Assembly: GCF_056712565.1 (NCBI RefSeq)
Contig: NZ_CM160072.1
Length of the DNA: 64,000 nt
Reading direction: 5' to 3' (one strand)
Both the position numbers and the translations under genes were made by a program. Below, one piece after another: positions 1-47,011 of the stretch. Position 1 is the first letter of the stretch. Each line of letters starts with the position of its first letter. The notes under the pieces are model-generated. The model had not been told where the DNA came from and searched no databases. It worked only from the letters and a program-made list of their open reading frames with translations.

Positions 1-1247
1 ATTGGCATCCAGGCAGCAATACCACTGGGATCGTTAGTGTGGATCACCCAGGAAATGATTGCAGAACCAACCAGTGGCGCGATCCCTCCGGCAATAACGG
101 CAGAAACTTCCCTTGCCAGTGCGACGCCAATATAACGATGGCGAGCACCAAAGAGTTCAGGCAGAAAAGCACCTTGTGCACCAAACATACCCCAGGCTCC
201 AATCCCTAAGGCCAGAGAAAGAGAGACAATAGTGACAGGAACATTACCGTGGCTGAAAGACCACCACACCGGAAAGGTAATCAACAACTGAAAAATCGCC
301 AGACTACGATAGACAAGAACCCTGCCGAAGCGATCGGTCAGCCAACCGGCAATAGGCACCATAATTGCACCGACTACTACCGCAGACATCAGGCATAGCG
401 TACCAACTGATTTGTCCAGCCCAACCACACCAACGATATAACTGATCGCTAAAGCCTGATAAATCGACGAGCCGCCGTTTTCTGCCAGACGTAAGCCAAT
501 CCCGACGAAGACATTACGGCGTGATGTTTTCAGCAAATTTCGTAAGGGTGATTCTGTAACTTGTTGACGAGCTTCGAGTTTTGCGAATGATGGCGATTCT
601 TTAAGATGCAGTCGAATATAAATAGCCACCGCGATAATCACCACGCTGGAGAGGAAGGGCAAGCGCCACCACCAGGTTTCGGCAAGATTTGTCACATTAT
701 GCAGCAGGATGAAGTAAACGGCAGATGCCATAAACGTACCAATCTGGATTCCGAGGAACGGCAGCGCGGCGTAATAACCCCGTTTGCCGTCAGGAGCATA
801 TTCGGTCATCAGTACGGCGGCTCCCGCCTGTTCAGCCCCAGCACCAAGCCCTTGCAGCAGGCGTAATGCAATAAGCATAATTGGCGCCCAGATTCCCGCT
901 GTTTCGTAAGTGGGTAATACCCCGATCAACGTGCTGGCGATTCCCATTAACAACACCGTTGCTAACAGGACGAACTTACGGCCCAAACGATCACCTAATG
1001 AGCCGAAGATAATTCCGCCTACAGGTCTGACGGCAAATCCGAGAAAGTAGGTGCCAAAACTGGCGATCAGCGCCATTCCCGGTTCCTGATTAGGAAAAAA
1101 GAGTGGACCAAAAATAATGGCGGATGCCAGGCTGTAAAGTGCGAAATCGTAGTATTCCAGTGCGCTGCCGAGAGAGCAGGTCCACGCCGCGCGACGCAGA
1201 TCTGCCGATGAAACATTCGCTTTCTCTGCTGGTTGTGAAGGTTGCAT
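1..1247 (-). CDS. MFS transporter, metabolite:H+ symporter (MHS; KgtP/ProP/ShiA-like) family; N-terminus at 1247, C-terminus beyond window start (partial)
   Basis: Own translation of the reverse strand from ATG (complement of 1245-1247) gives MQPSQPAEKANVSSADLRRAAW...; AAGGAG Shine-Dalgarno 6 nt upstream; MHS-type motifs EYYDFALY, RPVGGIIFGSLGDRLGRK and WLTDRFGR. Not in the ORF track because it runs off the window. Confidence 0.8.
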   Translation of the reverse strand, partial: MQPSQPAEKANVSSADLRRAAWTCSLGSALEYYDFALYSLASAIIFGPLFFPNQEPGMALIASFGTYFLGFAVRPVGGIIFGSLGDRLGRKFVLLATVLLMGIASTLIGVLPTYETAGIWAPIMLIALRLLQGLGAGAEQAGAAVLMTEYAPDGKRGYYAALPFLGIQIGTFMASAVYFILLHNVTNLAETWWWRLPFLSSVVIIAVAIYIRLHLKESPSFAKLEARQQVTESPLRNLLKTSRRNVFVGIGLRLAENGGSSIYQALAISYIVGVVGLDKSVGTLCLMSAVVVGAIMVPIAGWLTDRFGRVLVYRSLAIFQLLITFPVWWSFSHGNVPVTIVSLSLALGIGAWGMFGAQGAFLPELFGARHRYIGVALAREVSAVIAGGIAPLVGSAIISWVIHTNDPSGIAAWMP

Positions 1248-1337
1248 GATGTGTCTCCTTTCAGACGGATAAAAGAAATCCGCCTAAAATCAATGGGATT
1301 CTTGCGTTATTATTAAAATCCAAAATGAAATGCTAAG

Positions 1338-2117
1338 TTATCGAGCACTAAAGTGCGGTTGACGCTTCTCAGTAAATGCCTGACTGCCTTCATGAGCATC
1401 TTCAGTCGTGGCGGAAAAAGCGCCAGCCAGTGCTTCAAGCGTCGAGGCCACAGCAATACCTTCTCCGGCATCAATAACCTGCTTGGCGATCTGCACTGCA
1501 ACGGGAGCACGCTGGGCGATACGTTGTGCCAGTTGCAGTCCGGCGTCGTGTAACGCCTCCCTGGCGACAACGCGATTCACCAGCCCGCAGGACAGTGCCC
1601 GCTGTGCATCCAGTGGTTCACCGGTAAATACCAGTTCTTTCACCAGTGAGCGCCCAAGCAGTGCCGTCAGCCGCTGCGTTCCTGACCAGCCAGGCACTGT
1701 CGCCAGCCCGGTTTCTGGTAGTGCCATTTGTGCTTCGGCGCTACAAATACGGATATCGGTGGTAGCAGCCAGTTCCAGACCACCGCCATAAGCCAGGCCG
1801 TGCAACAGGGCGATTACGGGCTGTGGCAGTTGTGCCAGAGCATCAAATGCCTGATGACCGCGGCGGATCCAGTTGCGCCACATATCGAGTGCAGAAAGAG
1901 AGGTCCAGCGATGAATATCCGCGCCGACACAAAACGCTTTTTCACTGGCACTGGTCAGCAGTACTACGCGGATCTCCGAATCAGTTTCCAACGTGTGGCA
2001 ATGCGCCAGCAGTTGTTCGAGCATCTCTGGGGTTAATGCGTTGAGTTTTGCCGGGCGATTAATCACCAAAGTGGCAATGAAACCGTTGCGCTGGAGGTCA
2101 ATGGTGCCGTTATTCAT
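1338..2117 (-). CDS. enoyl-CoA hydratase/isomerase (crotonase superfamily)
   Basis: 259-aa ORF; crotonase-type motifs with both catalytic Glu positions (YGGGLELAATTD and ALPETGL); start overlaps the stop of the upstream CoA-transferase gene by 8 nt. Confidence 0.8.
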   Translation of the reverse strand: MNNGTIDLQRNGFIATLVINRPAKLNALTPEMLEQLLAHCHTLETDSEIRVVLLTSASEKAFCVGADIHRWTSLSALDMWRNWIRRGHQAFDALAQLPQPVIALLHGLAYGGGLELAATTDIRICSAEAQMALPETGLATVPGWSGTQRLTALLGRSLVKELVFTGEPLDAQRALSCGLVNRVVAREALHDAGLQLAQRIAQRAPVAVQIAKQVIDAGEGIAVASTLEALAGAFSATTEDAHEGSQAFTEKRQPHFSAR

Positions 2118-3681
2118 GGTGACGTCCTTGTTGAAAATAGTGGGGATTCATTAGTTTGAGATCGTCTGCCAGACGGAGTGGGGCATTGCTTTGGGCGAGA
2201 ATGTCGCGTTCAGGATCAATACCTGGGGCAATTTCCGTGACCAGTAGTCCGTCTGGGGTTAATTCCAGCACGCAGCGTTCAGTGATGTACTGCACTTGTT
2301 GCCCGAGTCTTATTGCGCGTTTGCCGGAGAACGTCACGTGGGCGACGTCCTGTACCAGTTTTTTGGCTTTGCCTTCTTTAATGATACGCAGCTGACCCTC
2401 TTCCAGTTGCAGTTGGGCACCGGCATTGAAAAAGCCAGAGAAAATAATGCGCTTCGCATGTGAGGTGATATCAATAAATCCACCGCATCCGGCAGTGACA
2501 TGTGGACGAGCGGGGAGATGTGAGACGTTCACTGAGCCATCTGCGCCGATTTGTAAAAACGACATCAGAGTGAGATCAAAGCCACCGCCCTGGAAATAGG
2601 TGAACTGCTGGGGAGAGGGCAAAAATGCTTCTGCATTAGAGGCACAACCGAACTGAAATTCCAGCAGTGGAACTCCGCCAATCGCGCCCTGTTCCAGCAG
2701 CCAGGTGACGTCACCGTGGCGACCTTGTTCCAGTAAAATGCGTGGTACGTTGGCAGAAATACCAAAGCCAATATTTACCGCATCTCCACTTTGTAGTTCT
2801 TGCGCGACTCGCTGGGCAATAACTCGCGCCGGGCCATGTTCCATATAACGAAAGGCTGATAGCGGACGACTGATTTCGCCGGAAATGGCAGGTTCATATT
2901 GCGTTTGTGTCGTTTGTGTTTGTTCCGGCGCAATCACGATGTAATCCACCAGTACACCCGGAATACGCACCTCTTTTGGTTTCAGACTTCCGGCGGCAAC
3001 CTGTCGTTTTACTTGCGCAATTATGATGCCACCATTATTGCGAACGGCAGTAGCCTGTTCCAGTGGCCCCAGATAAGCCCCTTCATGTTCATAAGTCAGG
3101 TTGCCGCGTTCATCGGCAGTGGTAGCGCGAATGATCGCCACCTGCGGCACGATACTGGGGAAAAACAGCCAGTCGTCGTTAGCAAATCGAACACGTTCAA
3201 CCAGAGATTGTTGCGCCGCTTTTTCATTCATTGCACCGCCCTGCAACAGGGGATCCACATAGGTATCCATGCCTGTTTGTGTCAGCACGCCAGGACGATG
3301 AGCCGCCGCTTCCCGGTGCATATCAAATAAGATCCCGGAAGGCAGATTCCAGGCGGGGATCGCGTTGTCATTGATCATTTGCCAGATTAACGGAGGCGCC
3401 ATTGATGATGGACCGGAGGGGTAGGAGCCAGCGATCACTTTTGCCAGTAAGCCCGGTTGCGCCAGATGATCGATGCCTTTTACGCCATACATATCACCAG
3501 CGGCGATAGGGTGGATGGAGGTGATGTTTTGCGGATGTCCGGCACGTTGAAAGCGTTCACCTATTGCTGCCAGCACCGCATCCGGACACCCCATTCCACT
3601 GGAGGAGGAGACGGTGACAACTGCGCCATCAACAATCAAATCTGCAGCTTCCGGTGCAGTGATCGTGCGTACAGAGCACAT
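2110..3681 (-). CDS. family I acyl-CoA:acetate CoA-transferase, fused alpha/beta (YdiF/Pct-like)
   Basis: 523-aa ORF; blocks AAAHRPGVLTQTGMDTYVDP, IRATTADERGNL and RIPGVLVDYIV align with E. coli YdiF as I recall it; E-x-G catalytic motif LLEQGAIGG; AAGGA SD before the ATG. Confidence 0.8.
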   Translation of the reverse strand: MCSVRTITAPEAADLIVDGAVVTVSSSSGMGCPDAVLAAIGERFQRAGHPQNITSIHPIAAGDMYGVKGIDHLAQPGLLAKVIAGSYPSGPSSMAPPLIWQMINDNAIPAWNLPSGILFDMHREAAAHRPGVLTQTGMDTYVDPLLQGGAMNEKAAQQSLVERVRFANDDWLFFPSIVPQVAIIRATTADERGNLTYEHEGAYLGPLEQATAVRNNGGIIIAQVKRQVAAGSLKPKEVRIPGVLVDYIVIAPEQTQTTQTQYEPAISGEISRPLSAFRYMEHGPARVIAQRVAQELQSGDAVNIGFGISANVPRILLEQGRHGDVTWLLEQGAIGGVPLLEFQFGCASNAEAFLPSPQQFTYFQGGGFDLTLMSFLQIGADGSVNVSHLPARPHVTAGCGGFIDITSHAKRIIFSGFFNAGAQLQLEEGQLRIIKEGKAKKLVQDVAHVTFSGKRAIRLGQQVQYITERCVLELTPDGLLVTEIAPGIDPERDILAQSNAPLRLADDLKLMNPHYFQQGRHHE

Positions 3682-3936
3682 AATAATTTCCTTGTTTCGA
3701 TATAAAAATAATTAAAAATATGCATTTAAAACAATATGATAATTTTCATAAATTAATTGGAACGATCTAATTTATGCGTAATTTGTACGATTAGGGTGTA
3801 AAAAACACAACAAGGGAAGTGCGAATCTGTGATCGAAACGACGATCTCCTGCGATCCCTTGCGTTAACGGATCGCATGAGTAAAAGGAGATTATGATAAA
3901 GTAATTGCCTTGATCTTATGGGGGTTTGGAGCAGGC

Positions 3937-4971
3937 ATGGCGAAGTCGGATACAGGAAGAAAGCGGGTAACATTAACCGATGTTGCGCGTGCGGCTGGCG
4001 TTTCGAAATCGACCGTATCGCTGGTTCTCAACGACAGTTCACTTATCAAAAAAGAGACTCAACAAAAAGTCCAGCAAGCCATTGAACAATTAGGCTATGT
4101 CTATAACCGTTTTGCTGCCAATCTGCGTTCGCAAAAATCGCTAACTATCGGCGTAGTCATTGACGATTTGATAAATCCTTTCTTCGCTGAATTTACTATG
4201 GGTCTTGAGATGACGCTGGCGGAGCACGGTTTTATCACCGTGATGTCCAATACCTCCCAGCGTAGTGACCGGCAAAAACAGGTGCTTGATACCTTGCTGG
4301 AACACCACGTCGCGGGCATTGTCCTCTGTCCAGTGAACAGTACCTCAGAAGCCGATTTACAGCGTTATGCCAACAGTTCCACACCCTTATTAATCACGAT
4401 GCGCCCTCTGGATTGGCAACAATTGCCCGTCGATTACGTTGGCGTGGACAGCCACGCAGGTGTACGGGAAGCGACGGAATATCTCATTCAACAAGGGCAC
4501 AGAGATATCGTGTTTATTGGTGGTCTTACGCACCATATGCGTTATCAGGGATACCTTGAGGCGATGAATCACCATGGTTTACAGCCGTGGAGTACTGATG
4601 CTTTTTCGCTGCGTGCTGAACCGACTCAGGCCAACGGCTACCAGTTGATGCAACAGCTGTTGGATATGCCTTCGCCACCCACAGCGGTGATTTGTTATAA
4701 CGATTTAATGGCTTTTGGCGCGGAGTCGGCACTAGGCGAAAGAGGATTATTTGCCGGGGAAGATATTTCGTTGATTGGTAATGATGGCGTGGCGGCTTGT
4801 GCTTACAGTAACCCGCCGTTAACCACAATTGCGGTAGAACCATTGGCTCTGGGGAAACAGGCGGCGCAGCAAATTTTACGGCGTATTGCGCAACCAGACG
4901 CACCGCTCAGCCATTACATCTATCGCCCGACCCTGCAAATTCGCGCTTCCACCGGAAAGCGGGGGCGTTAA
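3937..4971 (+). CDS. LacI/GalR-family transcriptional regulator, divergent from the CoA-transferase operon
   Basis: ORF-track ORF 3910-4971 trimmed to ATG 3937 (GGAG SD 5 nt upstream); N-terminal HTH VTLTDVARAAGVSKSTVSLVLN; periplasmic-binding-like effector domain. Confidence 0.8.
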   Translation: MAKSDTGRKRVTLTDVARAAGVSKSTVSLVLNDSSLIKKETQQKVQQAIEQLGYVYNRFAANLRSQKSLTIGVVIDDLINPFFAEFTMGLEMTLAEHGFITVMSNTSQRSDRQKQVLDTLLEHHVAGIVLCPVNSTSEADLQRYANSSTPLLITMRPLDWQQLPVDYVGVDSHAGVREATEYLIQQGHRDIVFIGGLTHHMRYQGYLEAMNHHGLQPWSTDAFSLRAEPTQANGYQLMQQLLDMPSPPTAVICYNDLMAFGAESALGERGLFAGEDISLIGNDGVAACAYSNPPLTTIAVEPLALGKQAAQQILRRIAQPDAPLSHYIYRPTLQIRASTGKRGR

Positions 4972-4977
4972 ATGCTG

Positions 4978-5000
4978 TAGCGAGAAACTGTTTCTCGCTA
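4978..5000. promoter_or_regulatory. perfect 23-bp palindrome TAGCGAGAAAC-T-GTTTCTCGCTA between the LacI-type gene stop and dnaB start; operator or terminator stem, function unknown
   Basis: Read directly: 11-bp arms pair perfectly around a single central T; lies 7 nt after the regulator stop and 44 nt before the dnaB ATG. Confidence 0.5.
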
Positions 5001-5043
5001 TACTCTCTTGTCCCCCATTCAACAGCAGGTAACACCATTCGTT

Positions 5044-6459
5044 ATGGCAGGCAATAGACCTTTCAACAAACAACAGACTGATAACCGCGAACGCGATCCA
5101 CAAGTTGCCGGGCTGAAAGTGCCTCCGCACTCGATCGAAGCGGAGCAGTCGGTGTTGGGCGGTTTAATGCTGGATAACGAACGCTGGGATGATGTAGCTG
5201 AGCGTGTGGTGGCAGATGATTTTTACACCCGCCCACACCGTCATATCTTTACTGAAATGGCGCGTTTGCAGGAAAGCGGTAGTCCTATCGATCTGATTAC
5301 CCTTGCGGAATCGCTGGAACGCCAGGGGCAACTCGATAGCGTCGGTGGTTTTGCTTATCTGGCAGAGCTGTCAAAAAATACGCCAAGTGCGGCGAACATC
5401 AGTGCATATGCGGATATCGTGCGCGAACGTGCCGTTGTTCGTGAGATGATCTCCGTTGCTAACGAGATTGCCGAAGCTGGTTTTGATCCACAAGGGCGTA
5501 CCAGTGAAGATCTGCTCGACCTTGCTGAATCCCGCGTCTTTAAAATTGCCGAAAGTCGTGCAAACAAAGACGAAGGGCCGAAGAACATCGCCGATGTGCT
5601 CGACGCAACCGTGGCGCGTATTGAGCAGTTGTTTCAGCAGCCACACGATGGCGTTACCGGGGTAAATACCGGTTATGACGATCTCAACAAAAAAACCGCT
5701 GGCTTGCAGCCGTCGGATTTGATCATCGTTGCCGCGCGTCCGTCGATGGGTAAAACGACATTTGCGATGAACCTCGTCGAAAACGCGGCGATGTTGCAGG
5801 ATAAACCGGTGCTTATCTTTTCGCTGGAGATGCCATCAGAACAGATTATGATGCGTTCTCTGGCGTCGCTGTCGCGCGTTGACCAGACTAAAATCCGTAC
5901 CGGGCAGCTCGATGATGAAGACTGGGCACGCATTTCCGGCACCATGGGTATTTTGCTCGAAAAACGCAATATCTATATCGATGATTCCTCCGGCTTGACG
6001 CCAACGGAAGTGCGTTCCCGCGCACGCCGTATTGCCCGTGAACACGGCGGCATCGGGCTTATCATGATCGACTACCTGCAACTGATGCGCGTACCGGCGC
6101 TTTCCGATAACCGTACGCTGGAAATTGCAGAAATCTCCCGCTCGCTGAAAGCACTGGCGAAAGAACTGAACGTGCCGGTGGTGGCGCTGTCCCAGTTGAA
6201 CCGTTCTCTGGAACAACGTGCCGACAAACGCCCGGTCAACTCCGACCTGCGTGAATCTGGCTCTATCGAGCAGGATGCGGACTTGATCATGTTTATCTAT
6301 CGTGATGAGGTGTATCACGAAAACAGTGATTTAAAAGGCATCGCGGAAATTATTATCGGTAAACAACGTAACGGCCCAATCGGGACGGTACGCCTGACCT
6401 TTAACGGTCAATGGTCGCGCTTCGACAACTATGCGGGGCCGCAGTACGACGACGAATAA
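5044..6459 (+). CDS. dnaB: replicative DNA helicase DnaB
   Basis: 471 aa from ATG 5044 (MAGNRPFNKQQ...); Walker A PSMGKTTFA; ORF-track ORF 5008-6459 has a 12-codon upstream extension that I reject. Confidence 0.95.
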   Translation: MAGNRPFNKQQTDNRERDPQVAGLKVPPHSIEAEQSVLGGLMLDNERWDDVAERVVADDFYTRPHRHIFTEMARLQESGSPIDLITLAESLERQGQLDSVGGFAYLAELSKNTPSAANISAYADIVRERAVVREMISVANEIAEAGFDPQGRTSEDLLDLAESRVFKIAESRANKDEGPKNIADVLDATVARIEQLFQQPHDGVTGVNTGYDDLNKKTAGLQPSDLIIVAARPSMGKTTFAMNLVENAAMLQDKPVLIFSLEMPSEQIMMRSLASLSRVDQTKIRTGQLDDEDWARISGTMGILLEKRNIYIDDSSGLTPTEVRSRARRIAREHGGIGLIMIDYLQLMRVPALSDNRTLEIAEISRSLKALAKELNVPVVALSQLNRSLEQRADKRPVNSDLRESGSIEQDADLIMFIYRDEVYHENSDLKGIAEIIIGKQRNGPIGTVRLTFNGQWSRFDNYAGPQYDDE

Positions 6460-7613: not shown

Positions 7614-8171
7614 ATGTCTTATTCAGAAATCGCCGCGTGTCTGGCATACGCGGTTTCCGTCTGGCTGGCTGCCAGAAACAATGTGCATACATGGTGGATC
7701 GGCATAATTGGCAGCATATTGTACGGCTGGGTTTTTTGGTCTGTGCAACTCTATGCCGACGTTACGCTCCAGTTATTCTTCATCGCGACCAGCATCACTG
7801 GCTGGATCCACTGGCTGAAAGGTCAGGGTGGCGACATCTTGCCGGTGCGCCGAACGCAAGCCAGTCACTTTTTCCTTTTGTTGCTCTGTGCTGTCGTCGT
7901 GGCAGGCGGTTACGGCTTTTTACTCCACACCTTTACCAATGCCTGGGCACCCTGGCTGGATTCGTTGATTTTGACCTTTAGCGTTCTGGCACAATTCATG
8001 TTGATGGGAAGACGTATCGAAAACTGGTTCGTCTGGTTAGCGGTGAATACCCTGGCAGTGCCACTGTATATGACGCGCGGTTTAAACCTGACCGCTGGCT
8101 TATATTTCCTGTTCTGGATTAACGCCTGGCATGGTTTGTATCAATGGCGCAAAGAGTTGCAAACATCATGA
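7614..8171 (+). CDS. PnuC-family nicotinamide riboside transporter homolog (compact, 185 aa)
   Basis: Blocks VQLYADVTLQLFFIATSITGWIHW and RRIENWFVWLAVNTLAVPLY align with E. coli PnuC (IQLYASLLLQVFFFAANIYGWYAW; RKYVENWLLWVIINVISVV) as I recall it; GGGAGGG SD; begins 22 nt after the alr stop. Confidence 0.75.
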   Translation: MSYSEIAACLAYAVSVWLAARNNVHTWWIGIIGSILYGWVFWSVQLYADVTLQLFFIATSITGWIHWLKGQGGDILPVRRTQASHFFLLLLCAVVVAGGYGFLLHTFTNAWAPWLDSLILTFSVLAQFMLMGRRIENWFVWLAVNTLAVPLYMTRGLNLTAGLYFLFWINAWHGLYQWRKELQTS

Positions 8172-9166
8172 AGCCTTTTGCAACGGGCCTGGTGGTTGGT
8201 AAATTCGCGCCTTTGCATTGTGGTCATGAAAAGTTGATCAATACCGCACTGGCGCAATGTGAAGAACTGTTCATCATCAGTTATTCCGTGCCGGAAATGC
8301 CTGACTGTGAACCTGAAAAGCGCCTGACGTGGCTGCAAGTGCGCTTCCCGCAAGCGACGATTTTGGTACTGACGCCAGAGCTTGTTGCGCGTTATAACTT
8401 ACCTGCCATACCGCATAACGATGCCGACATCCACCGTCATTATGTGGCGACGCTGTGCCTGCAGATATTACGCTGTCGTCCACATGCTGTATTTACTGCA
8501 GAAGACTATGGCGATGGCTTTGCTAACGTGCTGGCGCGGCGTTTTGCCCAACCCGTTGAACACGTTCGAATGGCGCGCCCAGTTGGCGATGAAGCGCCTT
8601 CGGGAACGCTTATTCGTTCCGATGTTCACCGCTATCGCTACATGTTGGCGAATGATGTTTATTACAGTTTCGTTCGCCGTATCTGTCTGCTTGGTGGCGA
8701 ATCTACCGGTAAAAGCACGCTTTCAAAAGCGCTGGCGGATGGGCTTGATACGGTGTATGTCGCTGAATTTGGCCGCGACTATTGGGAAGAAAAAAACGGA
8801 ATCTTAACCGCGGATGATTTGTTGCATATCGCCTGCGAACAGGTACGCCGGGAACAACAAGCAGAAGCTAATCACTATCTTATATGTGACACGTCGCCAC
8901 TCACGACCTTGTTCTATGCCCTTGATCAATATGGTCATGCTCCGCAAGAACTTCATCAACTGGCGGAGCGGGAATACTCTCTGGTGGTGCTTTGCGGCGC
9001 AGAATTTCCCTTCGTGCAGGATGGCACCCGGCAAGGAGAGGTATTTCGCGCACGGCAACAGGTGTGGTATGAACAGGAATTATCGCGCAGGAATATTCCT
9101 TATCTTTCTGTTTCGGGTTCGCTGCAAGAGCGACTGGGGCAAATTCTACATCGCCTTCCCGACTGA
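8168..9166 (+). CDS. NadR-like bifunctional NMN adenylyltransferase / ribosylnicotinamide kinase lacking the N-terminal HTH domain
   Basis: ORF-track ORF 8144-9166 trimmed to ATG 8168, which overlaps the upstream TGA (ATGA coupling); nucleotidyltransferase motif GKFAPLHCGH; Walker A GGESTGKST; same domain order as NadR without the DNA-binding domain. Confidence 0.75.
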   Translation: MKPFATGLVVGKFAPLHCGHEKLINTALAQCEELFIISYSVPEMPDCEPEKRLTWLQVRFPQATILVLTPELVARYNLPAIPHNDADIHRHYVATLCLQILRCRPHAVFTAEDYGDGFANVLARRFAQPVEHVRMARPVGDEAPSGTLIRSDVHRYRYMLANDVYYSFVRRICLLGGESTGKSTLSKALADGLDTVYVAEFGRDYWEEKNGILTADDLLHIACEQVRREQQAEANHYLICDTSPLTTLFYALDQYGHAPQELHQLAEREYSLVVLCGAEFPFVQDGTRQGEVFRARQQVWYEQELSRRNIPYLSVSGSLQERLGQILHRLPD

Positions 9167-10622: not shown

Positions 10623-13367
10623 ATGGAGAACATGACCTCGCCCGGCACGCTGCTTAGTGGAGATAACGCGACCTGGCTTGAAGAGTACTACCAGACCTGG
10701 TTGCGTACGCCGGAACAACTCCCGGAAGACTGGCGGCGTTTTTTTCTTTCACCTGAACTGACTGTCCAAAGCGTATCCGGTGATAACAACGTCAGCGGTG
10801 CGACGTTAAAAAAACAGGCTGCGGTAATACAACTGATCAATGCCTGGCGCACGCAGGGGCATCTGCGCGCAAAGCTTGATCCACTTGGTTTGAATCCCCC
10901 AGCTGACGTTCCCTCCCTCCAGCCTGGTTTTTGGGGATTAAGCGAAGAAGACTTGTTGCAGGAGTTTAGCGTCACCTTTGGCGCACACACCACGCAAATG
11001 CCACTTAAGCAACTGCTTAACCTGCTGGAGCAAGCCTGGGCCGGTAGCCAGGCTTATGAACTTGCTCATCTGGAAAATCGTGAAGAAATCAACTGGTTGT
11101 TATCACGGATTGAGAGCAGCAATGCGCCACAAGCTGATGCCCAAACCTGCATTGCCCGTTTTGAAAAACTGATGGCGGCAGAGACGTTAGAGCGTTATCT
11201 GCATACCCGTTATGTTGGGCAGAAACGGTTTTCTCTGGAAGGGGGCGAAAGTGCAATCCCGGCGCTCGATACGCTGACAAAACGCCTGCGTGCGCAAGGT
11301 GTGGAGGAAATGGTCATTGGCATGGCGCACCGGGGAAGACTTAATGTTCTGGTTAATCTGTTGAATAAAGACCCGGCACAGCTTTTTGCTGAGTTTGAAG
11401 GCAAGCAGACGATCGGCAGTGGTTCAGGCGATGTGAAATACCACATGGGGTATTCCAGCAATCTGGAAACACCTGCCGGTTCGCTGCATGTGGCGCTGGC
11501 GTATAACCCCTCACATCTGGAGATCGTGAATCCGGTGGTGCTGGGCCAGGTGCGAGCCAGGCAGGAACGCCGTGGTGAGGATGGTCAGGCAAAAGTGGTG
11601 GGCGTACTTATTCATGGGGATTCCGCGTTGGGCGGCCTCGGCGTCAACCAAACCACGTTTAACTTATCGCAGACTCAGGGCTACGGCACTGGCGGTACGC
11701 TACATCTGGTGATTAACAATCAGATTGGCTTCACCACTTCCCGCTTGCAGGATATGCGTTCTTCACGGTACTGCACCGATATTGCCAAAATGGTAGCGGC
11801 CCCAATTATCCACGTTAATGGCGATGACGTTGACGCTGTTTGCCAGGTAATGGAACTGGCGTGCGAATGGCGAGACACCTTCCGGCGCGACATCATCATC
11901 GATATTTGCTGCTTCCGTAAGCACGGACACAACGAAAGCGATGAGCCACGTCTTACCCAGCCACAAATGTATCAGGCAGTGGATGCTCACCCTGGTACGC
12001 TCGCCCGTTATGGTGAATCTCTTGCCCGCCGCGGCCTGTTAACTCAGGCGCAACAAGATGAGATGACGGCACGCTATCGCGACTGGCTGGATAGCTGCCA
12101 GAAACGTGAACCGCAGCCTCTCAAACCTGCAATTCACTCTTTTAGCGCTAACTGGTATGGGTTGACCAACCCTCACTGGAGCGCCCCGGTATCTACGGCA
12201 TTGCCTCGGCAAAAGCTGGCAGCGTATGGTGAAATCATTTCTACACTGCCACCCGATGTGGTCGCACATCCTACCATTAAACGGCAACTGGCGTTACGCC
12301 AGGATATGGCCGCAGGTACTCAGCCAATAGACTGGGGAATGGCTGAAATGCTGGCCTATGCATCGCTTGTGGATGCGGGTGTTGGTGTGCGTCTTTCTGG
12401 TGAAGACTCAGGGCGTGGCACGTTCAGTCATCGCCATGCAGTGGTACATCATCAAACTGAAGCCCGTCGTTATCTGCCGTTACAGCATATCCGCGCTGGT
12501 CAGGCATCTTTCGATGTTTATGATTCGGTGCTTAATGAAGAAGCGCTCTTAGCCTTTGAATATGGCTATTCAACGTCTGCGCCTCAGCAACTGGTTATTT
12601 GGGAAGCGCAGTTTGGTGACTTTGCCAACGGCGCTCAGGTTGCTATTGACCAGTTTATCTCGTCTGGCGAAACCAAGTGGGATCGCTATAGCGGTTTAAC
12701 CATTCTTCTGCCGCATGGCTATGACGGACAAGGGCCGGAGCACTCTTCTGCGCGTCCTGAGCGCTGGCTGCAACTGTGCGCAGAAAACAACATGCAGGTG
12801 GTGATGCCCAGTGAGTCAGCACAAATGTTCCATTTGCTGCGCGGTCAGGCATTACGCCCAATGCGCAAACCGTTAGTGATAATGATGAGTAAGCGTTTAC
12901 TTCGGTTTAAAGGCGCTATGAGCGAGCTTTCTGAATTCACTGATGGCGCTTATAAACCGGTAGTCACCGATCCGCAATTGCATCAGTCCCAGAAAGTTAA
13001 GCGCGTTATTTTGTGTAGCGGCCAGGTCTATTACGACGTACTGGAAGCCCGTAAGCAGCGTGAGTGTGAAGATGAGGTAGCGATTGTTCGCCTGGAGCAA
13101 CTCTACCCGTTCCCGGTCGCAGAACTGAATGATGTTCTGGCGAGTTGGCCGAACTGCTGCGAATGGATTTGGTTGCAGGAAGAGCCAGAAAACCAGGGCG
13201 CGTGGCGGCAGATTCGTCATGAGCTGGCGGCACTGAAAATTAACACTCCTTACTGGCAGTATGCAGGCCGCCCGGCAGTGGCAGCTCCGGCGACAGGGTA
13301 TGGGCGTGTACATAAACAACAAATCGACGAATTTCTTGCTGCTGCGTTTGCAGATATTCAGCCATGA
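10623..13367 (+). CDS. 2-oxoglutarate dehydrogenase E1 component paralog (SucA-like)
   Basis: ORF-track ORF 10548-13367 (TTG) trimmed to ATG 10623 with AGGAGA SD; ThDP region HGDSALGGLGVNQTTFNLSQTQGYGTGGTLHLVINNQIGFTTS parallels SucA. Confidence 0.9.
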   Translation: MENMTSPGTLLSGDNATWLEEYYQTWLRTPEQLPEDWRRFFLSPELTVQSVSGDNNVSGATLKKQAAVIQLINAWRTQGHLRAKLDPLGLNPPADVPSLQPGFWGLSEEDLLQEFSVTFGAHTTQMPLKQLLNLLEQAWAGSQAYELAHLENREEINWLLSRIESSNAPQADAQTCIARFEKLMAAETLERYLHTRYVGQKRFSLEGGESAIPALDTLTKRLRAQGVEEMVIGMAHRGRLNVLVNLLNKDPAQLFAEFEGKQTIGSGSGDVKYHMGYSSNLETPAGSLHVALAYNPSHLEIVNPVVLGQVRARQERRGEDGQAKVVGVLIHGDSALGGLGVNQTTFNLSQTQGYGTGGTLHLVINNQIGFTTSRLQDMRSSRYCTDIAKMVAAPIIHVNGDDVDAVCQVMELACEWRDTFRRDIIIDICCFRKHGHNESDEPRLTQPQMYQAVDAHPGTLARYGESLARRGLLTQAQQDEMTARYRDWLDSCQKREPQPLKPAIHSFSANWYGLTNPHWSAPVSTALPRQKLAAYGEIISTLPPDVVAHPTIKRQLALRQDMAAGTQPIDWGMAEMLAYASLVDAGVGVRLSGEDSGRGTFSHRHAVVHHQTEARRYLPLQHIRAGQASFDVYDSVLNEEALLAFEYGYSTSAPQQLVIWEAQFGDFANGAQVAIDQFISSGETKWDRYSGLTILLPHGYDGQGPEHSSARPERWLQLCAENNMQVVMPSESAQMFHLLRGQALRPMRKPLVIMMSKRLLRFKGAMSELSEFTDGAYKPVVTDPQLHQSQKVKRVILCSGQVYYDVLEARKQRECEDEVAIVRLEQLYPFPVAELNDVLASWPNCCEWIWLQEEPENQGAWRQIRHELAALKINTPYWQYAGRPAVAAPATGYGRVHKQQIDEFLAAAFADIQP

Positions 13368-13399
13368 AAGGCGCACAAAAATAATAAGGAGAACATTTT

Positions 13400-14554
13400 A
13401 TGATCGAAATTACTGTCCCTGTATTACCGGAATCTGTCACGGAAGGCACGCTGACAACCTGGTGTAAACAAGAAGGCGAGCACGTAAAACGCGATGATGT
13501 GATTGCCGAGCTGGAAACCGATAAAGTCATTCTGGAAATACCGGCCCCGCACGATGGCGTGTTAAGCAATATTATCGTCAGCGAAGGTAGCACGGTCACG
13601 TCCGCGCAACTGTTGGCGCATCTTAAGCCGCAAGCTGTCATAGAAGAAACCGTCACACCAGTCACCGAAACCCTGGCGATGCCTTCCGCACGGCTGGAGG
13701 CACAGCGTAGTGGTGTTGAACTTGCTGACGTTGCGGGGAGCGGGAGAAATGGACGTATCCTGAAAGAGGATGTACAGCGCGTTACTCCTGCACCAGTCAT
13801 TCAGCCTGAACGGGTGGCGGAGATCGCGCCAGCTAAACCCTTGACACCGGGTGCTCGTCAGGAACGTCGTGAGCCGATGTCGCGCTTACGTCAGCGAATT
13901 GCTGAGCGTCTGCTGGCTTCCCAACAAAATAACGCCATTCTTACCACATTCAACGAAGTAAACATGCAGAGCGTGATGGATTTACGCACCCGCTGGAAAG
14001 ATCGTTTTGCCGAGAAGCACGGCGTGAAGCTGGGCTTTATGTCCTTCTTTGTTAAGGCCGTTACCCGGGCGCTGGAGCGCTTCCCTGTAGTGAATGCCAG
14101 CGTTGATGGCAACGAGATTATCTGGCGTGATTATTGCGATATCGGCATTGCAGTGAGCAGCAACCGCGGCCTGGTAGTGCCTGTGTTACGCAATGCGCAA
14201 TCACTCTCTTTGGTGGAAATTGAACGGCAAATTGCCGAATACGCCACACAGGCACGCAATGGCAAATTGCCGCTGGAGGCGTTACAGGGCGGCACGTTCT
14301 CTATCACCAACGGCGGTACTTTTGGTTCGATGATGTCAACGCCAATCATTAACCCGCCGCAGTCGGCCATTCTTGGGATGCATGCCATCACGCCGCGCCC
14401 GGTCGCAGAAAACGGCCAGGTTGTTATTCGTCCCATGATGTACCTTGCTCTCAGCTATGACCATCGCATTATCGATGGTCAGGAAGCCGTGCAGACATTG
14501 GTGGCAATACGTGAGCTACTGGAATCACCGGAACAACTGTTGCTGGATCTTTAA
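13400..14554 (+). CDS. dihydrolipoyllysine-residue succinyltransferase E2 paralog (SucB-like)
   Basis: 384 aa; lipoyl-lysine motif [14 protein letters not shown]; catalytic [11 protein letters not shown]; AAGGAGA SD. Confidence 0.9.
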
Positions 14555-14565
14555 GGAGGGCGCCG

Positions 14566-15984
14566 ATGAGTACAATTTTTGATGTGGCAGTTATGGGGGG
14601 TGGGCCAGGTGGTTACGTAGCGGCACTGCGGGCTGCGCAGAATGGGCTTTCCGTAGTATGTATTGATGATGGTGTTAATGCACAGGGCGAACCTTCGCCG
14701 GGCGGTACGTGTCTCAATGTCGGCTGTATTCCGTCAAAATCGTTGCTGCAATCTTCCGAGCTGTACGCGCAAGTACAGCATGAGGCAAGCATTCATGGCG
14801 TTAACGTTGAAGGCGTATCTTTCAATGCTGCCGCGATGATTCAACGTAAAGATGCCATAGTAAGCCGCCTGACAATGGGCATCAGCTTGCTGTTTAAGAA
14901 AAATAAAGTGAAGCACTTGTGCGGCCTCGCAACGTTAGAACGTGCTCAGGATGAGATTTGGCAATTACGCGTAAACGATCAACACATTCACGCCCGTAAT
15001 GTAGTGATTGCAACAGGTTCTCAGCCGCGTCAGCTGCCTGGCGTTACCATTGATAATCAACAGATCCTCGACAATCGTGGCGCCCTGGCATTGAGCGAAG
15101 TGCCGCCGCGTCTCGGTGTGATCGGCGCTGGCGTGATTGGCCTTGAACTGGGGTCTGTGTGGAATCGGGTCGGTTCAGATGTCACGCTGCTGGAGATGGC
15201 GCCAACGTTCTTGCCTGCACTGGAAGCTCGCCTGTCGAACGAAGTCCGTAAAGCAATGATTGCCAGTGGGATGAAAATGCAACTGGCAGTAGAGATTGAG
15301 GCTATTGAACAACGGGATGACGGTGTGCATGTGCGCTGGCGGCAGGGTGAGAAGCGAGAAGAAAGCCGCTTCGATAAATTAATTCTTGCCATTGGACGTG
15401 TACCGCGACTTTCTGGTGTCGATCTCGTGCAACTCGGTCTTGAAGCCGATAACCGTGGCGGTATTGCCGTCGATAACTTATGCCGTACCGGGAAAGCCGG
15501 GCTGTGGGCAATTGGTGATGTCGTGCGAGGGCCGATGCTGGCGCATAAAGCGATGGCTGAAGGTGTGGTGGTTGCGGATCAAATTGCCGGACTGGCGGTA
15601 GAGCCGATTAATTTTGCGCTGATCCCTTCGGTGATTTACACCCAACCGGAAGTTGCGTGGGTAGGGGAAAACGAGGCCTCACTGAAAGCCGCTGGCAGAG
15701 TCTTTAACAAAGGAAATTCTCTGTTTGCCGGTAACGGTCGCGCCTTAGCATTAGGCCAGGAAGGTGGGCGTTGCACGTTATACAGCGATAAACACACTGA
15801 CCGCGTACTTGGCGGAGCGATTGTTGGCCCGCAGGCATCGGAGCTGATCAATGAAATTGCGCTGGCGATGACTTTTAGCGCCTCTGGCGAGGATATTGCC
15901 TGTGCGATCCATGCGCATCCGACCTTAAGCGAAGTCATCCACGAAGCAGCAATGGCCTTGAATAATAAAGCATTACACGGATAA
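14566..15984 (+). CDS. dihydrolipoyl dehydrogenase E3 paralog (Lpd-like)
   Basis: 472 aa; FAD fold GGGPGGYVAALRAAQ; redox-active disulfide CLNVGCIPSK. Confidence 0.9.
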   Translation: MSTIFDVAVMGGGPGGYVAALRAAQNGLSVVCIDDGVNAQGEPSPGGTCLNVGCIPSKSLLQSSELYAQVQHEASIHGVNVEGVSFNAAAMIQRKDAIVSRLTMGISLLFKKNKVKHLCGLATLERAQDEIWQLRVNDQHIHARNVVIATGSQPRQLPGVTIDNQQILDNRGALALSEVPPRLGVIGAGVIGLELGSVWNRVGSDVTLLEMAPTFLPALEARLSNEVRKAMIASGMKMQLAVEIEAIEQRDDGVHVRWRQGEKREESRFDKLILAIGRVPRLSGVDLVQLGLEADNRGGIAVDNLCRTGKAGLWAIGDVVRGPMLAHKAMAEGVVVADQIAGLAVEPINFALIPSVIYTQPEVAWVGENEASLKAAGRVFNKGNSLFAGNGRALALGQEGGRCTLYSDKHTDRVLGGAIVGPQASELINEIALAMTFSASGEDIACAIHAHPTLSEVIHEAAMALNNKALHG

Positions 15985-16005
15985 CACATACCACTGAGGG
16001 AATAT

Positions 16006-17175
16006 ATGAATTTACATGAGTATCAGGCCAAATCGTTACTGGCTGGCATGGGGATGCCGTGTCCAAAAGAGATAGCCATCCAACAGATTTCGCAACTGGC
16101 AGATGCCTGGCAACATATTGCTTGCCCGAGTAAAGGCGCGGTACTTAAAGCGCAGGTACATGCTGGTGGGCGCGGTAAAGCTGGCGGCGTAAAAGTGCTT
16201 AAGCAGCTGCCGGAAGCACAGGCTTTTGTACAGCAAATGTTGGGATCGCAACTGGTGACTTATCAGACCGGGCCAGAAGGGCAGTATGTCAGCAGTATTT
16301 TGCTGTGCGAAAACATCTATCCGGTACGCCAGGAACTCTATTTTGGCATGGTGGTGGATCGTGAAAGCCAGCGGGTCACGTTTATTGTCAGCCCGGAAGG
16401 TGGTGTGGAAATTGAAAAAGTCGCCCATGAGACACCGGAGAAAATCAGCAGTGTCAGCATTGATCCACTGACAGGCGTGCAGCCTTGCCATATCCGCGAA
16501 ATGTTTGCTGTTCTGCAACTGGAACACGGGCTATTTGCTACCTTTAGTCGCCTGGTTAATCAGGCGTGGAAAGCCTTTAACGAACTGGATTTCGCCCTGC
16601 TGGAAATTAACCCTCTGGTGTTGCGGGAAACGGGCGAATTTATGTGTGCAGACGCGAAAGTATCGCTGGATGATAACGCGCTGTATCGTCACCCGGAACT
16701 CCAGGTGCTACGTGATGAAACCCAGGAAGATCCACGCGAAAGCCAGGCAGCGAAGCTTGATCTTAATTATGTCTCGCTGGACGGAAATATCGGCTGCATG
16801 GTCAATGGTGCAGGGCTGGCTATGGCAACCATGGACATCATCAAGCTATACGGTGAACAACCCGCAAACTTCCTGGATGTTGGCGGTGGCGCAACCCAGG
16901 AGCGCGTCAGTGAAGCCTTTCGGCTGATTGTTTCCGACAGCAAAGTGAAAGCCATTCTGGTTAATATTTTTGGTGGGATTGTCCGTTGCGACATGATCGC
17001 CAGAGCCATTATTCATGCTCTGAATGAGGCCCGTATCACCCTGCCTGTCGTGGTGCGTCTCTCCGGTAATAACGCTGCCGAAGGGCAGCGGTTACTGGCA
17101 GAAAGTGGCCTGACGGTGGAAGCCGTCAATTCTCTGGATGATGCCGCTAAACGCATCATTGCGTTACTGAATTAA
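16006..17175 (+). CDS. succinyl-CoA synthetase beta subunit paralog (SucC-like)
   Basis: 389 aa; N-terminus MNLHEYQAKSLLAGMGMP typical of the ATP-grasp SucC family. Confidence 0.9.
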   Translation: MNLHEYQAKSLLAGMGMPCPKEIAIQQISQLADAWQHIACPSKGAVLKAQVHAGGRGKAGGVKVLKQLPEAQAFVQQMLGSQLVTYQTGPEGQYVSSILLCENIYPVRQELYFGMVVDRESQRVTFIVSPEGGVEIEKVAHETPEKISSVSIDPLTGVQPCHIREMFAVLQLEHGLFATFSRLVNQAWKAFNELDFALLEINPLVLRETGEFMCADAKVSLDDNALYRHPELQVLRDETQEDPRESQAAKLDLNYVSLDGNIGCMVNGAGLAMATMDIIKLYGEQPANFLDVGGGATQERVSEAFRLIVSDSKVKAILVNIFGGIVRCDMIARAIIHALNEARITLPVVVRLSGNNAAEGQRLLAESGLTVEAVNSLDDAAKRIIALLN

Positions 17176-17187
17176 CAGGAGGTTAAG

Positions 17188-18060
17188 ATGAGCGTTTTGA
17201 TCAACAAACACACGCGGGTACTGGTGCAGGGCATTACCGGCAAAAACGGCACATTTCATACAGAGCAGGCTATTGCGTATGGCACGCAGATTGTGGGTGG
17301 AGTGACGCCAGGTAAGGGCGGGCAACGGCATCTGGATCGCCCGGTTTTTGATTCAATGAAAGAAGCGATGCGACAAACTGAGGCTGATGCCAGCGTGATT
17401 TATGTGCCTGCACCGTTTGTGCTGGATTCTGTTGTTGAGGCTATTGAAGCTGGCGTCAAATTGGTTGTGGTGATCACTGAAGGTGTACCGACACTGGATA
17501 TGGTGAAAGTTCGTCGGCTGCTTGACTGCCACCCGGATGTGCGGCTGATTGGGCCAAACTGCCCAGGAGTTATCACGCCGGGCGAGTGCAAAATCGGGAT
17601 TATGCCTGGTGAAATCCACCGCCCAGGGCGTATTGGGATTGTTTCCCGCTCCGGTACATTAACCTACGAAGCTGTAGCGCAAACCACGGCGCTGGGACTT
17701 GGGCAATCCACCTGTATTGGTATTGGCGGCGATCCGGTTCCGGGGACTAACTTTATTGATGCGCTGCGTTTATTCGAAAATGATCCGCAAACAGACGCGG
17801 TAATTATGATCGGTGAAATTGGTGGTAATGCGGAAGAACGGGCTGCGGAATTTATTCGTCATGAAATGAATAAACCGGTCGTAGGTTATATTGCCGGTGT
17901 TACTGCACCAAAAGGAAAACGCATGGGGCACGCCGGAGCCATTATTTCTGGCGGTAGCGGCAGTGCAGAGGATAAATTCCGTGCGTTCGATAAAGCAGGC
18001 ATGGCATGGACAAGAAACCCGGCGTTGCTTGGCGAAACGTTATGGAATGTTATTAAGTAA
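17188..18060 (+). CDS. succinyl-CoA synthetase alpha subunit paralog (SucD-like)
   Basis: 290 aa; CoA-binding N-terminus [14 protein letters not shown]; phosphohistidine region [17 protein letters not shown]. Confidence 0.9.
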
Positions 18061-18078
18061 TCCATAAATGAATATCAA

Positions 18079-18102
18079 GGGAGCATATCGCTCCCTTTTT
18101 TT
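18079..18102 (+). terminator. rho-independent terminator ending the dehydrogenase/synthetase operon
   Basis: GGGAGC-ATATC-GCTCCC followed by an 8-T run, 19 nt after the sucD-like stop. Confidence 0.65.
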
Positions 18103-18215
18103 ATCTGTGTGGTAAGGGAATCATCTTTTAATAACTGTGCGGAAAACCGCGCATAAAATAAAAAGGATAAATAGCTAACTCATTAAATAACAAAGCGTTA
18201 TTAAAAAATTAAAGA

Positions 18216-18231
18216 TGGCATAGCTCCTGCA
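18216..18231 (+). promoter_or_regulatory. candidate sigma-54 (-24/-12) promoter for the transporter / Ldh_2 operon
   Basis: TGGCATAGCTCCTGCA: GG-N10-GC, close to consensus; about 40 nt upstream of ATG 18272. Confidence 0.6.
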
Positions 18232-18271
18232 ATAGCCAGGCAGGTTTTTTATTTTTCACAATGAGGTGAAT

Positions 18272-19771
18272 ATGTCATCAATATCCCATGGCGCACCACA
18301 AAAGCGTCGAATTATCCCTAATCCCGGCCTGTGGTTGGCGATCATTGCCGGAATTATTATTACCCTTCTGCCACTGGGCGATACCTTGCCCGTCGCCGGA
18401 CAAAATATGATCGCCATTCTGGTGTTTGCCATTATTGTCTGGATCAGCGAAGCGATGGATTACACCGCCAGTGCAATTGTTATTTCCGCACTGATTATCT
18501 TTATGGTTGGTTTTGCCCCGGATATGAATCACCCGGACACGATCCTTGGCACCGCGAAAGCGCTGAAAATGACTCTGTCGGGTTTTTCTAATTCTGCTCT
18601 GGCGCTGGTGGCAGCAGCAATGTTTATCGCGGCGGCAATGACCATTACCGGGCTGGATAAACGCATTGCGCTGTTTACTATGTCGAAAATAGGTGCCAGC
18701 AGCCGCAGCATTATTATCGGTGCCATTGTGGTGACCATCGTCCTGAGCCTGGTTGTACCCAGTGCCACTGCCCGTACGGCTTGCGTGGTGCCGATTATGA
18801 TGGGGGTCATTGCGGCATTTAAGGTGGATAAACATTCACGTTTAGCGGCGTCAATGATGATTGTTATCGCCCAGGCGACCAGTATCTGGAACGTTGGTAT
18901 TCAAACTTCGGCGGCGCAAAACCTGCTTTCTATCGGTTTTATCAATAAAACTTTCGGCGCCGGGCATTCTGTCAGCTGGCTTGACTGGCTGTTAGCGGGC
19001 GCGCCCTGGAGCCTCACCATGTCGGTGATCCTCTATTTCCTCGCACGTAAATTGTTGCCGCCAGAAACGGAAGCTGTTGAAGGGGGGAGCGAGGCCATTA
19101 AAAAAGCACTCGCAGAGTTAGGGCCAACCACCGGTAAAGAAAAACGCTTGATCGGTATTTCGCTATTGTTACTGCTCTTTTGGTCTACTGGCGGAAAATT
19201 ACACAGTATTGATACCACCTCTGTCACCCTTGCCGGACTGGCGATTATGTTGCTGCCAGGCATCGGTGTAATGAGCTGGAAAGAGGTCGAAAAACGTGTG
19301 CAGTGGGGCACGTTGCTGATGTTTGGTATTGGTATCAGCCTGGGGTCCACGCTGCTTGATACGCAGGCAGCTTCATGGATGGCGAACTATGTGGTGAAAG
19401 GTTTTGGTCTTGATGGCTTGCCATCATTAGCCATCTTCGCGATTCTCGCCGCTTTCTTGATAATTATTCACCTGGGGTTTGCCAGTGCCACTGCGCTAAC
19501 TGCCGCATTGCTGCCCATCCTGATTAGCCTGTTAAGCAGTCTGCCGCCAGAACTCGGCGTTAACCCGGTCGGCATGACCATTCTGCTCGCCTTCAGTGTC
19601 AGTTTTGGCTTCATCCTGCCGATTAACGCGCCACAAAATATGGTGTGTATGGGTACGGATACCTTCACGCCACGCCAGTTTACCCGTGTGGGACTGTACC
19701 TGACGGTAATCGGCTACCTGTTGTTGCTACTGTTTGCCGCCACCTGGTGGAAAATTTTAGGTCTAATGTGA
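18272..19771 (+). CDS. anion permease (DASS/CitT-like ion-transporter superfamily), probable 2-oxoglutarate/dicarboxylate uptake
   Basis: ORF-track ORF 18266-19771 (GTG) trimmed to ATG 18272; polytopic hydrophobic 499-aa protein; island context. Confidence 0.75.
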   Translation: MSSISHGAPQKRRIIPNPGLWLAIIAGIIITLLPLGDTLPVAGQNMIAILVFAIIVWISEAMDYTASAIVISALIIFMVGFAPDMNHPDTILGTAKALKMTLSGFSNSALALVAAAMFIAAAMTITGLDKRIALFTMSKIGASSRSIIIGAIVVTIVLSLVVPSATARTACVVPIMMGVIAAFKVDKHSRLAASMMIVIAQATSIWNVGIQTSAAQNLLSIGFINKTFGAGHSVSWLDWLLAGAPWSLTMSVILYFLARKLLPPETEAVEGGSEAIKKALAELGPTTGKEKRLIGISLLLLLFWSTGGKLHSIDTTSVTLAGLAIMLLPGIGVMSWKEVEKRVQWGTLLMFGIGISLGSTLLDTQAASWMANYVVKGFGLDGLPSLAIFAILAAFLIIIHLGFASATALTAALLPILISLLSSLPPELGVNPVGMTILLAFSVSFGFILPINAPQNMVCMGTDTFTPRQFTRVGLYLTVIGYLLLLLFAATWWKILGLM

Positions 19772-19782
19772 GGAAACCAACG

Positions 19783-46932: not shown

Positions 46933-47011
46933 GCCAGAACAGAGGTGGTTTCTGGACGTATTCCTTCCTGAAGTCGGTTTTCTGGCGTTGTTGTTAAGTC
47001 TCGGGGTCAAC

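Follow-up and report, generated by a model that had tools for sequence, protein, structure and literature searches.

A perfect 23-bp palindrome upstream of dnaB in island-bearing Escherichia coli as a possible terminator–promoter junction

Between an accessory gene for a LacI-family regulator and the essential gene dnaB, the DNA analysed here carries a perfect palindrome, and the question raised by this locus is whether the element belongs to the regulator, as its operator, or to dnaB, as a terminator or another part of its control region. The window, which is the whole stretch of 64,000 nucleotides that was analysed (contig NZ_CM160072.1), is 100% identical to the DNA of E. coli ATCC 11775. 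An earlier note, made from the letters of the window, had described the palindrome and had offered two readings of it, a terminator that shields dnaB from read-through and the operator of a dimeric regulator. The features around which the argument turns are as follows.

3937–4971, + strand: LacI-family regulator gene, scoring below the cut-off of every named NCBIfam family
4978–5000, + strand: perfect 23-bp palindrome, 11-nt arms around T, the centre (4989) being T or C among lineages
4967–5012, + strand: conserved non-coding block made up of GTTAAATGCTG, the palindrome and TATACTCTCTTGTC, defined from cross-lineage alignments
5044–6459, + strand: dnaB, the replicative helicase gene, presumably served by the upstream block

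Direct reading of the sequence at 4978–5000 (TAGCGAGAAACTGTTTCTCGCTA) confirms the perfect 23-bp palindrome of the earlier note, with 11-nt arms that are 100% complementary and a single central T (TAGCGAGAAAC-T-GTTTCTCGCTA). The gap of 72 bp that the note gave between the regulator and dnaB is likewise correct, as the regulator coding sequence (3937–4971) and the dnaB start (5044) leave a 72-nt spacer at 4972–5043, in which the palindrome starts about 6–7 nt after the regulator stop codon (4969–4971) and ends 43 nt before the dnaB ATG. The sequence is present as one copy within the 64-kb window, with none expected from 100 shuffles, and the chance of a perfect 11+1+11 palindrome anywhere in 64 kb is about 0.015 by arithmetic (64000 × 4^-11). 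Perfect inverted repeats with short loops and arms of 10 bp or more number 11 in the window, compared with about 0.9 in shuffled sequence, and the palindrome is thus a member of an enriched class and no one-off. With its one copy in the window it does not qualify as a dispersed repeat of the REP/BIME type. When 5426 complete E. coli genomes were searched, the palindrome query matched a median of two places per genome and four at the highest; because the query contains the palindrome, the two places are read as a single site matching on both strands, and at the sensitivity of BLAST none of the 5426 genomes showed a second similar site. Rfam covariance models gave no relevant match at E ≤ 10 across 3600–5300. 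The half-site GCGAGAAAC, with one mismatch allowed, has 30 matches in the window versus 17 expected, and this enrichment was rejected as a regulatory signal and judged an effect of codons or composition, since paired sites are absent. Two of the other perfect inverted repeats, palindromes with 10-bp arms, lie inside coding sequences (47002–47023 in nrfE and 59439–59458 in fdhF). A two-codon mini-ORF, ATG CTG TAG (4972–4980), abuts the TAA stop of the regulator and runs into the left arm; it is probably fortuitous, judging from a single inserted C that breaks its frame in Citrobacter.

The regulator gene is the + strand member of a five-gene island between qorA and dnaB, the four − strand genes of which encode an FAD-binding protein, an MFS transporter, an enoyl-CoA hydratase and a CoA-transferase, and none of the five island proteins reaches the cut-off of a named NCBIfam family. 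The four form an uncharacterised catabolic cluster (window 1–3681 and upstream; locus L001, 110–5982), with a fumarate-reductase-like FAD-binding protein, a shikimate-transporter-like MFS protein, the hydratase and a fused CoA-transferase; an Nramp transporter replaces the MFS protein in loci L010 and L014, and L023 also differs in that segment. For ExPEC strains, a comparative paper of 2026 mentions five additional ORFs at the qorA–dnaB position (PMC12928451). A query comprising the LacI-type gene and its flanks (3700–5300) is covered to at least 80% in 826 of the 5426 complete E. coli genomes, and in the remaining genomes the similarity to the window begins only about 16 nt before the dnaB ATG. 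An 89-nt query with the palindrome matches exactly the same 826 genomes, 823 of them at 99% or more, and the one variant examined has a single change at 5017, outside the palindrome. The earlier note had held the LacI-type gene to be accessory, and this distribution agrees with it, for the four catabolic genes as well; in the comparison with K-12 that it had suggested, the palindrome proved absent from K-12-type strains. Elsewhere in the window, a second accessory insertion (7614–9166, between alr and tyrB) carries pnuC and the gene of an AAA-family ATPase and is absent from K-12-type strains, and the segment at 10623–24016, between tyrB and aphA, looks like the alpha-ketoglutarate island (KguS/KguR) reported for CFT073 (PMC3694859); it contains a DASS transporter, a sensor kinase together with a sigma-54 regulator, and paralogues of both 2-oxoglutarate dehydrogenase and succinyl-CoA ligase.

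As RNA of the + strand, the palindrome and its surroundings give a hairpin followed by a pyrimidine-rich tail.

4976–5002, + strand: RNA hairpin with 12 pairs, including one G–U, and a 3-nt loop, terminator-like in the scan
5003–5012, + strand: pyrimidine-rich tail CTCTCTTGTC, a weak U tract that includes the predicted dnaB start point and is invariant in all lineages

The fold has an energy of −14.6 kcal/mol (z = −5.9), and 0 of 200 shuffles fold as well; the fold-energy check proposed in the earlier note thus places the element ahead of every shuffled sequence. The stem begins at 4976–4978, 5–7 nt past the stop codon and on the same strand as the upstream gene. The palindrome therefore has the stable stem-loop and the location shortly 3′ of a stop codon that are expected of an intrinsic terminator, and a consensus scan marks 4976–5002 plus the tail as terminator-like. 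The tail itself (TACTCTCTTGTC) has four U in its first 8 nt and a TransTermHP-style score of about −2.8 (range −2.5 to −2.9), compared with a mean of −2.07 for random sequence, whereas the window's classical terminators reach −4.1 to −4.9; this score falls at about the top 10% of random 15-mers, and the tails of several other post-gene hairpins in the window are poorer still. A stable hairpin but a middling tail score give the element the look of a weak or partial terminator. Of the window's ten other perfect hairpins, eight are found no more than 53 nt 3′ of a stop codon, most of them at 6–9 nt, following tyrB, ssb, yjcB, soxR, yjcE/LysR, an ABC-transporter binding-protein gene, fdhF and mdtP. 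The element thus resembles the Rho-independent terminators of Enterobacteria in its stable stem-loop a few nucleotides past the stop codon, its orientation on the coding strand and its U-containing tail, and other perfect hairpins of the window hold the same kind of position; it differs from them in that the tail is broken by a C, in that only 4 of the 12 stem pairs are G–C and in that its descending arm doubles as a −10-like element, and termination at it is something that we infer. The terminator-like role proposed in the earlier note is compatible with this position and fold.

In Citrobacter the hairpin takes the form of a 10-bp stem with a 7-nt loop (−13.9 kcal/mol). The stem is otherwise invariant, so that there are no compensatory changes, and covariation yields no signal to separate an RNA structure from a DNA site. 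A terminator on the reverse strand was rejected on account of its poor tail in our own calculation. An outer G5/C5 helix (4961–4967 with 5009–5015) encloses the hairpin, for a total of −27.7 kcal/mol, and the change G4965A in E. fergusonii, which turns a G–U into an A–U pair, is compatible with it; as a conserved structure the outer helix was rejected, as it is broken in Citrobacter and L023.

The same stretch contains the best candidate for a dnaB promoter.

4975–4981, + strand: weak −35-like sequence CTGTAG / TGTAGC, overlapping the left arm over its first 4 nt, with 2/6 matches
4999–5004, + strand: −10-like hexamer TATACT with a putative promoter function, overlapping the last 2 nt of the palindrome and ending 40 nt before the dnaB ATG
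5014–5043, + strand: putative dnaB 5′ UTR, aligning with the K-12-type spacer (CCCATTC...GGTAAC.CCATTC)

The hexamer TATACT matches the sigma-70 −10 element at five of six positions, with A at position 2 and T at position 6, and is invariant in all lineages; the position of the −10 extension reads CGc, not TGn. In E. coli as in Citrobacter, the pair CTGTAG-18-TATACT ranks highest among the sigma-70 pairs in the 250 nt ahead of dnaB, with a score of 7.2 that is no better than chance (6.7 ± 2.1 for the average best pair in random 250-nt pieces), and a consensus promoter scan found no promoter in the 72-nt spacer.

A short qor–dnaB spacer without the palindrome is common to K-12-type strains, E. 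albertii, a Salmonella-labelled contig and genomes of the C. freundii complex. The K-12-type qorA–dnaB spacer has 82 nt, of which only two differ between K-12 and E. albertii. The short version has no inverted repeat and contains a conserved extended −10, TGnTAA(A/T)(G/C)T, that ends 37 nt before the dnaB ATG, in agreement with the dnaB promoter TCGTCA-17-TAAAGT predicted for K-12 by Shimada et al. (2014) from an RpoD SELEX peak (PMC3946193). Alignable similarity between the window and the K-12-type spacer stops at about 5014, and all sequence upstream is unrelated. The two versions thus part close to the predicted transcription start, and the core promoter of island-type lineages has to be a different one. 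The earlier note had placed the dnaB promoter within or just after the accessory gene, and any dnaB promoter of this strain must indeed lie in sequence without counterpart in K-12-type strains. The two regions are alike in having a −10-like hexamer at a similar distance from the ATG (40 versus 37 nt), in their alignable 5′ UTR and in being very conserved between species; they are unlike in that the K-12 type has the extended −10 (TGnTAAAGT) and no inverted repeat, and in that the sequence above about +1 is unrelated. An apparent similarity of the K-12 spacer to the qor-side flank of the island is not significant, 194 of 300 shuffles scoring as well.

The K-12 start list of Romero (2014) contains no forward dnaB start and only a reverse-strand start, that of qor, at 4262328 in U00096.2, 9 nt upstream of the dnaB ATG (PMC4681348). 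The −10 of qor in K-12 (CATAGT) would span the dnaB start codon (window 5035–5046, − strand; L002, 3008); at this site the window reads CATAAC, with the final T lost, and the island-bearing Citrobacter retains CATAGT.

The conservation of the block was followed through lineages of increasing distance. A metagenome scan with a flank-based pattern, together with exact-protein look-ups, added three lineages; the pattern that excluded the E. coli form gave no match in the metagenomes, and a relaxed pattern gave nine loci. In all lineages compared, 4967–4985 and 4990–5012 are unchanged, and the variable positions cluster at 4986–4989, which is the tip of the hairpin, at 5013–5025, at 5034 and at 5040–5042. 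Escherichia marmotae (L024, L027) carries the full island, 91.5% identical, and L023, a divergent E. coli lineage, carries a variant of it; in both, the arms are identical at 22/22 positions and only the central base is changed, from T to C. Over the spacer, identity is 72/72 in E. fergusonii, 70/72 in L023 and 69/72 in E. marmotae, compared with 76–78% at dnaB third positions, and with the third-position rate taken as neutral the corresponding P values are 2e-9, 2e-6 and 2e-5. Identical dnaB runs of 111–113 nt occur in L023 and E. marmotae, and mosaic recombination could contribute to the apparent conservation in these two lineages or inflate it.

Citrobacter sp. has the island at the same qor–dnaB site, with a regulator 86% identical. 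Its version of the palindrome reads TAGCGAGA-TGGTGTT-TCTCGCTA; the outer 8 bp of each arm and TATACTCTCTTGTC are unchanged, and three adjacent bases near the tip differ (AAC → TGG). Over 4963–5012, the differences from E. coli are these tip bases (4986–4988) and one inserted C, and 47/50 positions are kept, whereas third-codon positions of dnaB are 61% identical. The part of the would-be promoter spacer outside the tip (4982–4985 and 4990–4998) is invariant even in Citrobacter, for which the chance is by arithmetic about 0.61^13 = 0.002; since a promoter spacer is normally not constrained in sequence, this points to a constraint on the inverted repeat itself. A relic copy of the cluster located elsewhere (L015, 1259–1340) still has the spacer next to dnaB together with 12 nt from the start of dnaB (ATGGCTGGGAAT), and this remnant of dnaB implies that the cluster was mobilised from a qor–dnaB site. 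The relic has lost 8 nt at the tip and forms no hairpin (−5.1 kcal/mol, no better than shuffles).

The most telling comparison is with E. fergusonii, in which the palindrome occurs without the island. The loci examined (L026 and L031–L038, among them the eight genome loci that include CU928158.2, which we take to be the type strain chromosome) read qor, a 68-aa ORF, a decayed vestige of about 65 nt from the 3′ end of the regulator gene, the palindrome and dnaB, with no accessory operon. The earlier note had named the palindrome upstream of dnaB in strains lacking the operon as the occurrence that would make it an element of dnaB or qor itself, and this occurrence was found in one species, E. 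fergusonii. The element is thus tied to dnaB and not to the accessory regulator, and the vestige of the LacI gene indicates that it arrived with the island. Compared with the window, E. fergusonii is identical at 93/94 positions over 4950–5043 and at 68% over the regulator-gene vestige (4909–4949); in dnaB, identity is 75.8% at third-codon positions and 99.3% at first and second positions. With up to one mismatch allowed, matching stretches reach 77 nt in dnaB and 109 nt in the upstream block. The 68-aa ORF is hydrophobic, specific to this species and situated at the place of the island (L026, 3652–3858; L031–L038, 2501–2707).

Given these results, an operator of the adjacent LacI-family regulator, by which dnaB would be coupled to the signal of the accessory operon, is a most improbable account of the palindrome. 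The palindrome adjoins the regulator gene and shares its dyad symmetry with the operators of the LacI/GalR family (PurR, Cra and the site predicted here), but it is 23 bp long with an odd centre (11+1+11, T or C) and no central CG, a departure that the earlier note had pointed out correctly. Scanning species-representative genomes with the LacI-type protein yielded no relatives beyond 25–26%; orthologues of the regulator were gathered by a search of proteins and by exact look-ups, and six divergent promoter regions were aligned, from ATCC 11775, a second E. coli, Citrobacter sp., Leminorella richardii, Enterobacter asburiae and a metagenomic contig. This alignment revealed a different site.

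3757–3770, no strand assigned: predicted cognate operator TTGGAWCGWTCYAA (TTGGAACGATCTAA), a conserved 14-bp CG-centred palindrome that is not part of the 23-bp element

Each orthologous locus contains the site TTGGAWCGWTCYAA once, and the window has no other copy of it. The site bears no resemblance to the 23-bp palindrome and is the probable operator, as judged from this alignment, of the uncharacterised LacI-family regulator. The palindrome does not travel with the regulator: in Leminorella, E. asburiae, L016 and L019, unrelated hairpins take its place behind the regulator gene, and it is present in E. fergusonii without the regulator. Three independent tests thus already contradict the operator of the neighbouring protein, which the earlier note had entertained. 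An operator of some other dimeric regulator, lying over about −33 to −11 of the dnaB promoter, where the bound protein would block or modulate RNA polymerase, is unlikely. The invariant arms with a variable centre and tip are as expected for half-sites around a free spacer, the palindrome fills the interval between the −35 and −10 of the best promoter candidate, and it is kept in E. fergusonii without the LacI-type gene. No candidate regulator is at hand, however, the E. coli genomes searched hold no second similar site at BLAST sensitivity, the Citrobacter site is asymmetric, three adjacent bases of one arm differing, and K-12-type strains, E. albertii, the Salmonella-labelled contig and the C. 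freundii complex run dnaB without the site. Likenesses noticed by eye to sites of LexA (CTGT-N8-ACtG), Cra, PurR, UvrY, sigma-32 (CCCCATTC) and sigma-E were rejected, as they fail on spacing or on conservation in Citrobacter.

Two further explanations dispense with a regulator protein at the palindrome. It is rather improbable that dnaB is mainly read through from the promoter of the LacI-type gene and that the hairpin is a stabilising or processing structure in the leader of its mRNA: the spacer contains no convincing sigma-70 promoter, the weak U tract makes read-through plausible and the LacI-type gene has ahead of it a promoter-like site (3712–3740) that is closely followed by the predicted operator, but E. 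fergusonii has lost that gene together with its promoter and keeps the block unchanged, the ancestral −10 at an equivalent position suggests a local promoter, and the larger structure formed by 4961–4967 with 5009–5015 is the one broken in Citrobacter and L023. Slightly more doubtful still is a scar without function, left at the island junction, such as a quasi-palindrome that template switching has made perfect; it would look conserved only through its linkage to dnaB and recombination. Template switching at quasi-palindromes is an established mutational mechanism. The palindrome lies within about 15 nt of the end of the alignable K-12-type similarity, both the cluster of three adjacent bases near the tip of one arm in Citrobacter and the 8-nt tip loss in the relic copy are typical of palindrome-associated mutation, as at template-switch sites, and long identical dnaB runs occur in two lineages. 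Such events explain the origin or change of a perfect symmetry, however, and not the conservation of the arms across species; against a scar also stand the 93/94 identity of the E. fergusonii block beside a vestige at 68% and dnaB third positions at 76%, the longer nearly identical stretch in the block (109 nt) than in dnaB (77 nt), and the 47/50 positions kept in Citrobacter despite 39% divergence at third positions.

The best explanation for the block of about 45 nt at 4967–5012 is that it constitutes a dnaB upstream control region, one of two non-homologous versions of the qor–dnaB junction in Escherichia and Citrobacter. Within it, the palindrome may be a weak terminator-like hairpin in a compact terminator–promoter junction for dnaB, a reading that we favour while holding it at somewhat less than even confidence. 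Transcription from the upstream gene, which is the regulated accessory LacI-type gene in most carriers and the 68-aa ORF in E. fergusonii, would be stopped or attenuated at the hairpin, and dnaB would be restarted from its own weak promoter, with the −10-like TATACT in the descending arm; we infer termination, the use of this promoter and a start near 5011. The essential dnaB would thereby be buffered from its accessory neighbour. The terminator part of this junction is suggested by a hairpin of −14.6 kcal/mol at 5–7 nt past the stop codon, by the similar placement of other hairpins in the window and by the unrelated hairpins that island copies elsewhere carry after the same regulator gene. 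A functional block is suggested by its intact state in E. fergusonii beside a vestige decayed to 68%, and a local promoter by the placement of TATACT at 40 nt, compared with 37 nt for the ancestral −10, and by the downstream 5′ UTR, which aligns. Against the junction count the weak U tract, the poor −35, the promoter score at the level of chance, the lack of covariation and, for the conservation in L023 and E. marmotae, the possible mosaic recombination.

In conclusion, post-gene hairpins and short-spacer promoters are ordinary, and what is mildly new here is the occurrence, within one genus, of two non-homologous upstream regions of an essential gene, each of them highly conserved, as well as the persistence of the island-type region, unchanged, in E. 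fergusonii after the loss of the island. No published description of either aspect of the dnaB upstream region was found, the paper on ExPEC strains noting only the five extra qorA–dnaB ORFs (PMC12928451). A further-reaching proposal, which we regard as possible though unlikely, is that the essential dnaB relies on two unrelated promoter regions in one genus, that the palindrome-based, island-type region has become indispensable and was for that reason kept base for base in E. fergusonii, and that the palindrome truly exerts control, as an insulator hairpin or as the operator of another regulator, which would give B2 E. coli, E. marmotae and E. fergusonii a regulation of helicase supply unlike that of K-12-type strains. 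If the element is only a weak terminator, the finding is routine. The dosage of dnaB matters for replication, and most work on dnaB uses K-12; in about 15% of complete E. coli genomes, in E. marmotae and in E. fergusonii, dnaB lies behind a different and highly conserved upstream region, which was brought in by an accessory island and in E. fergusonii has survived the loss of that island. Should the hairpin insulate or regulate dnaB, this would be a clear case of natural promoter replacement at an essential gene by horizontal transfer, and it would caution against carrying K-12 promoter annotations over to island-type strains.
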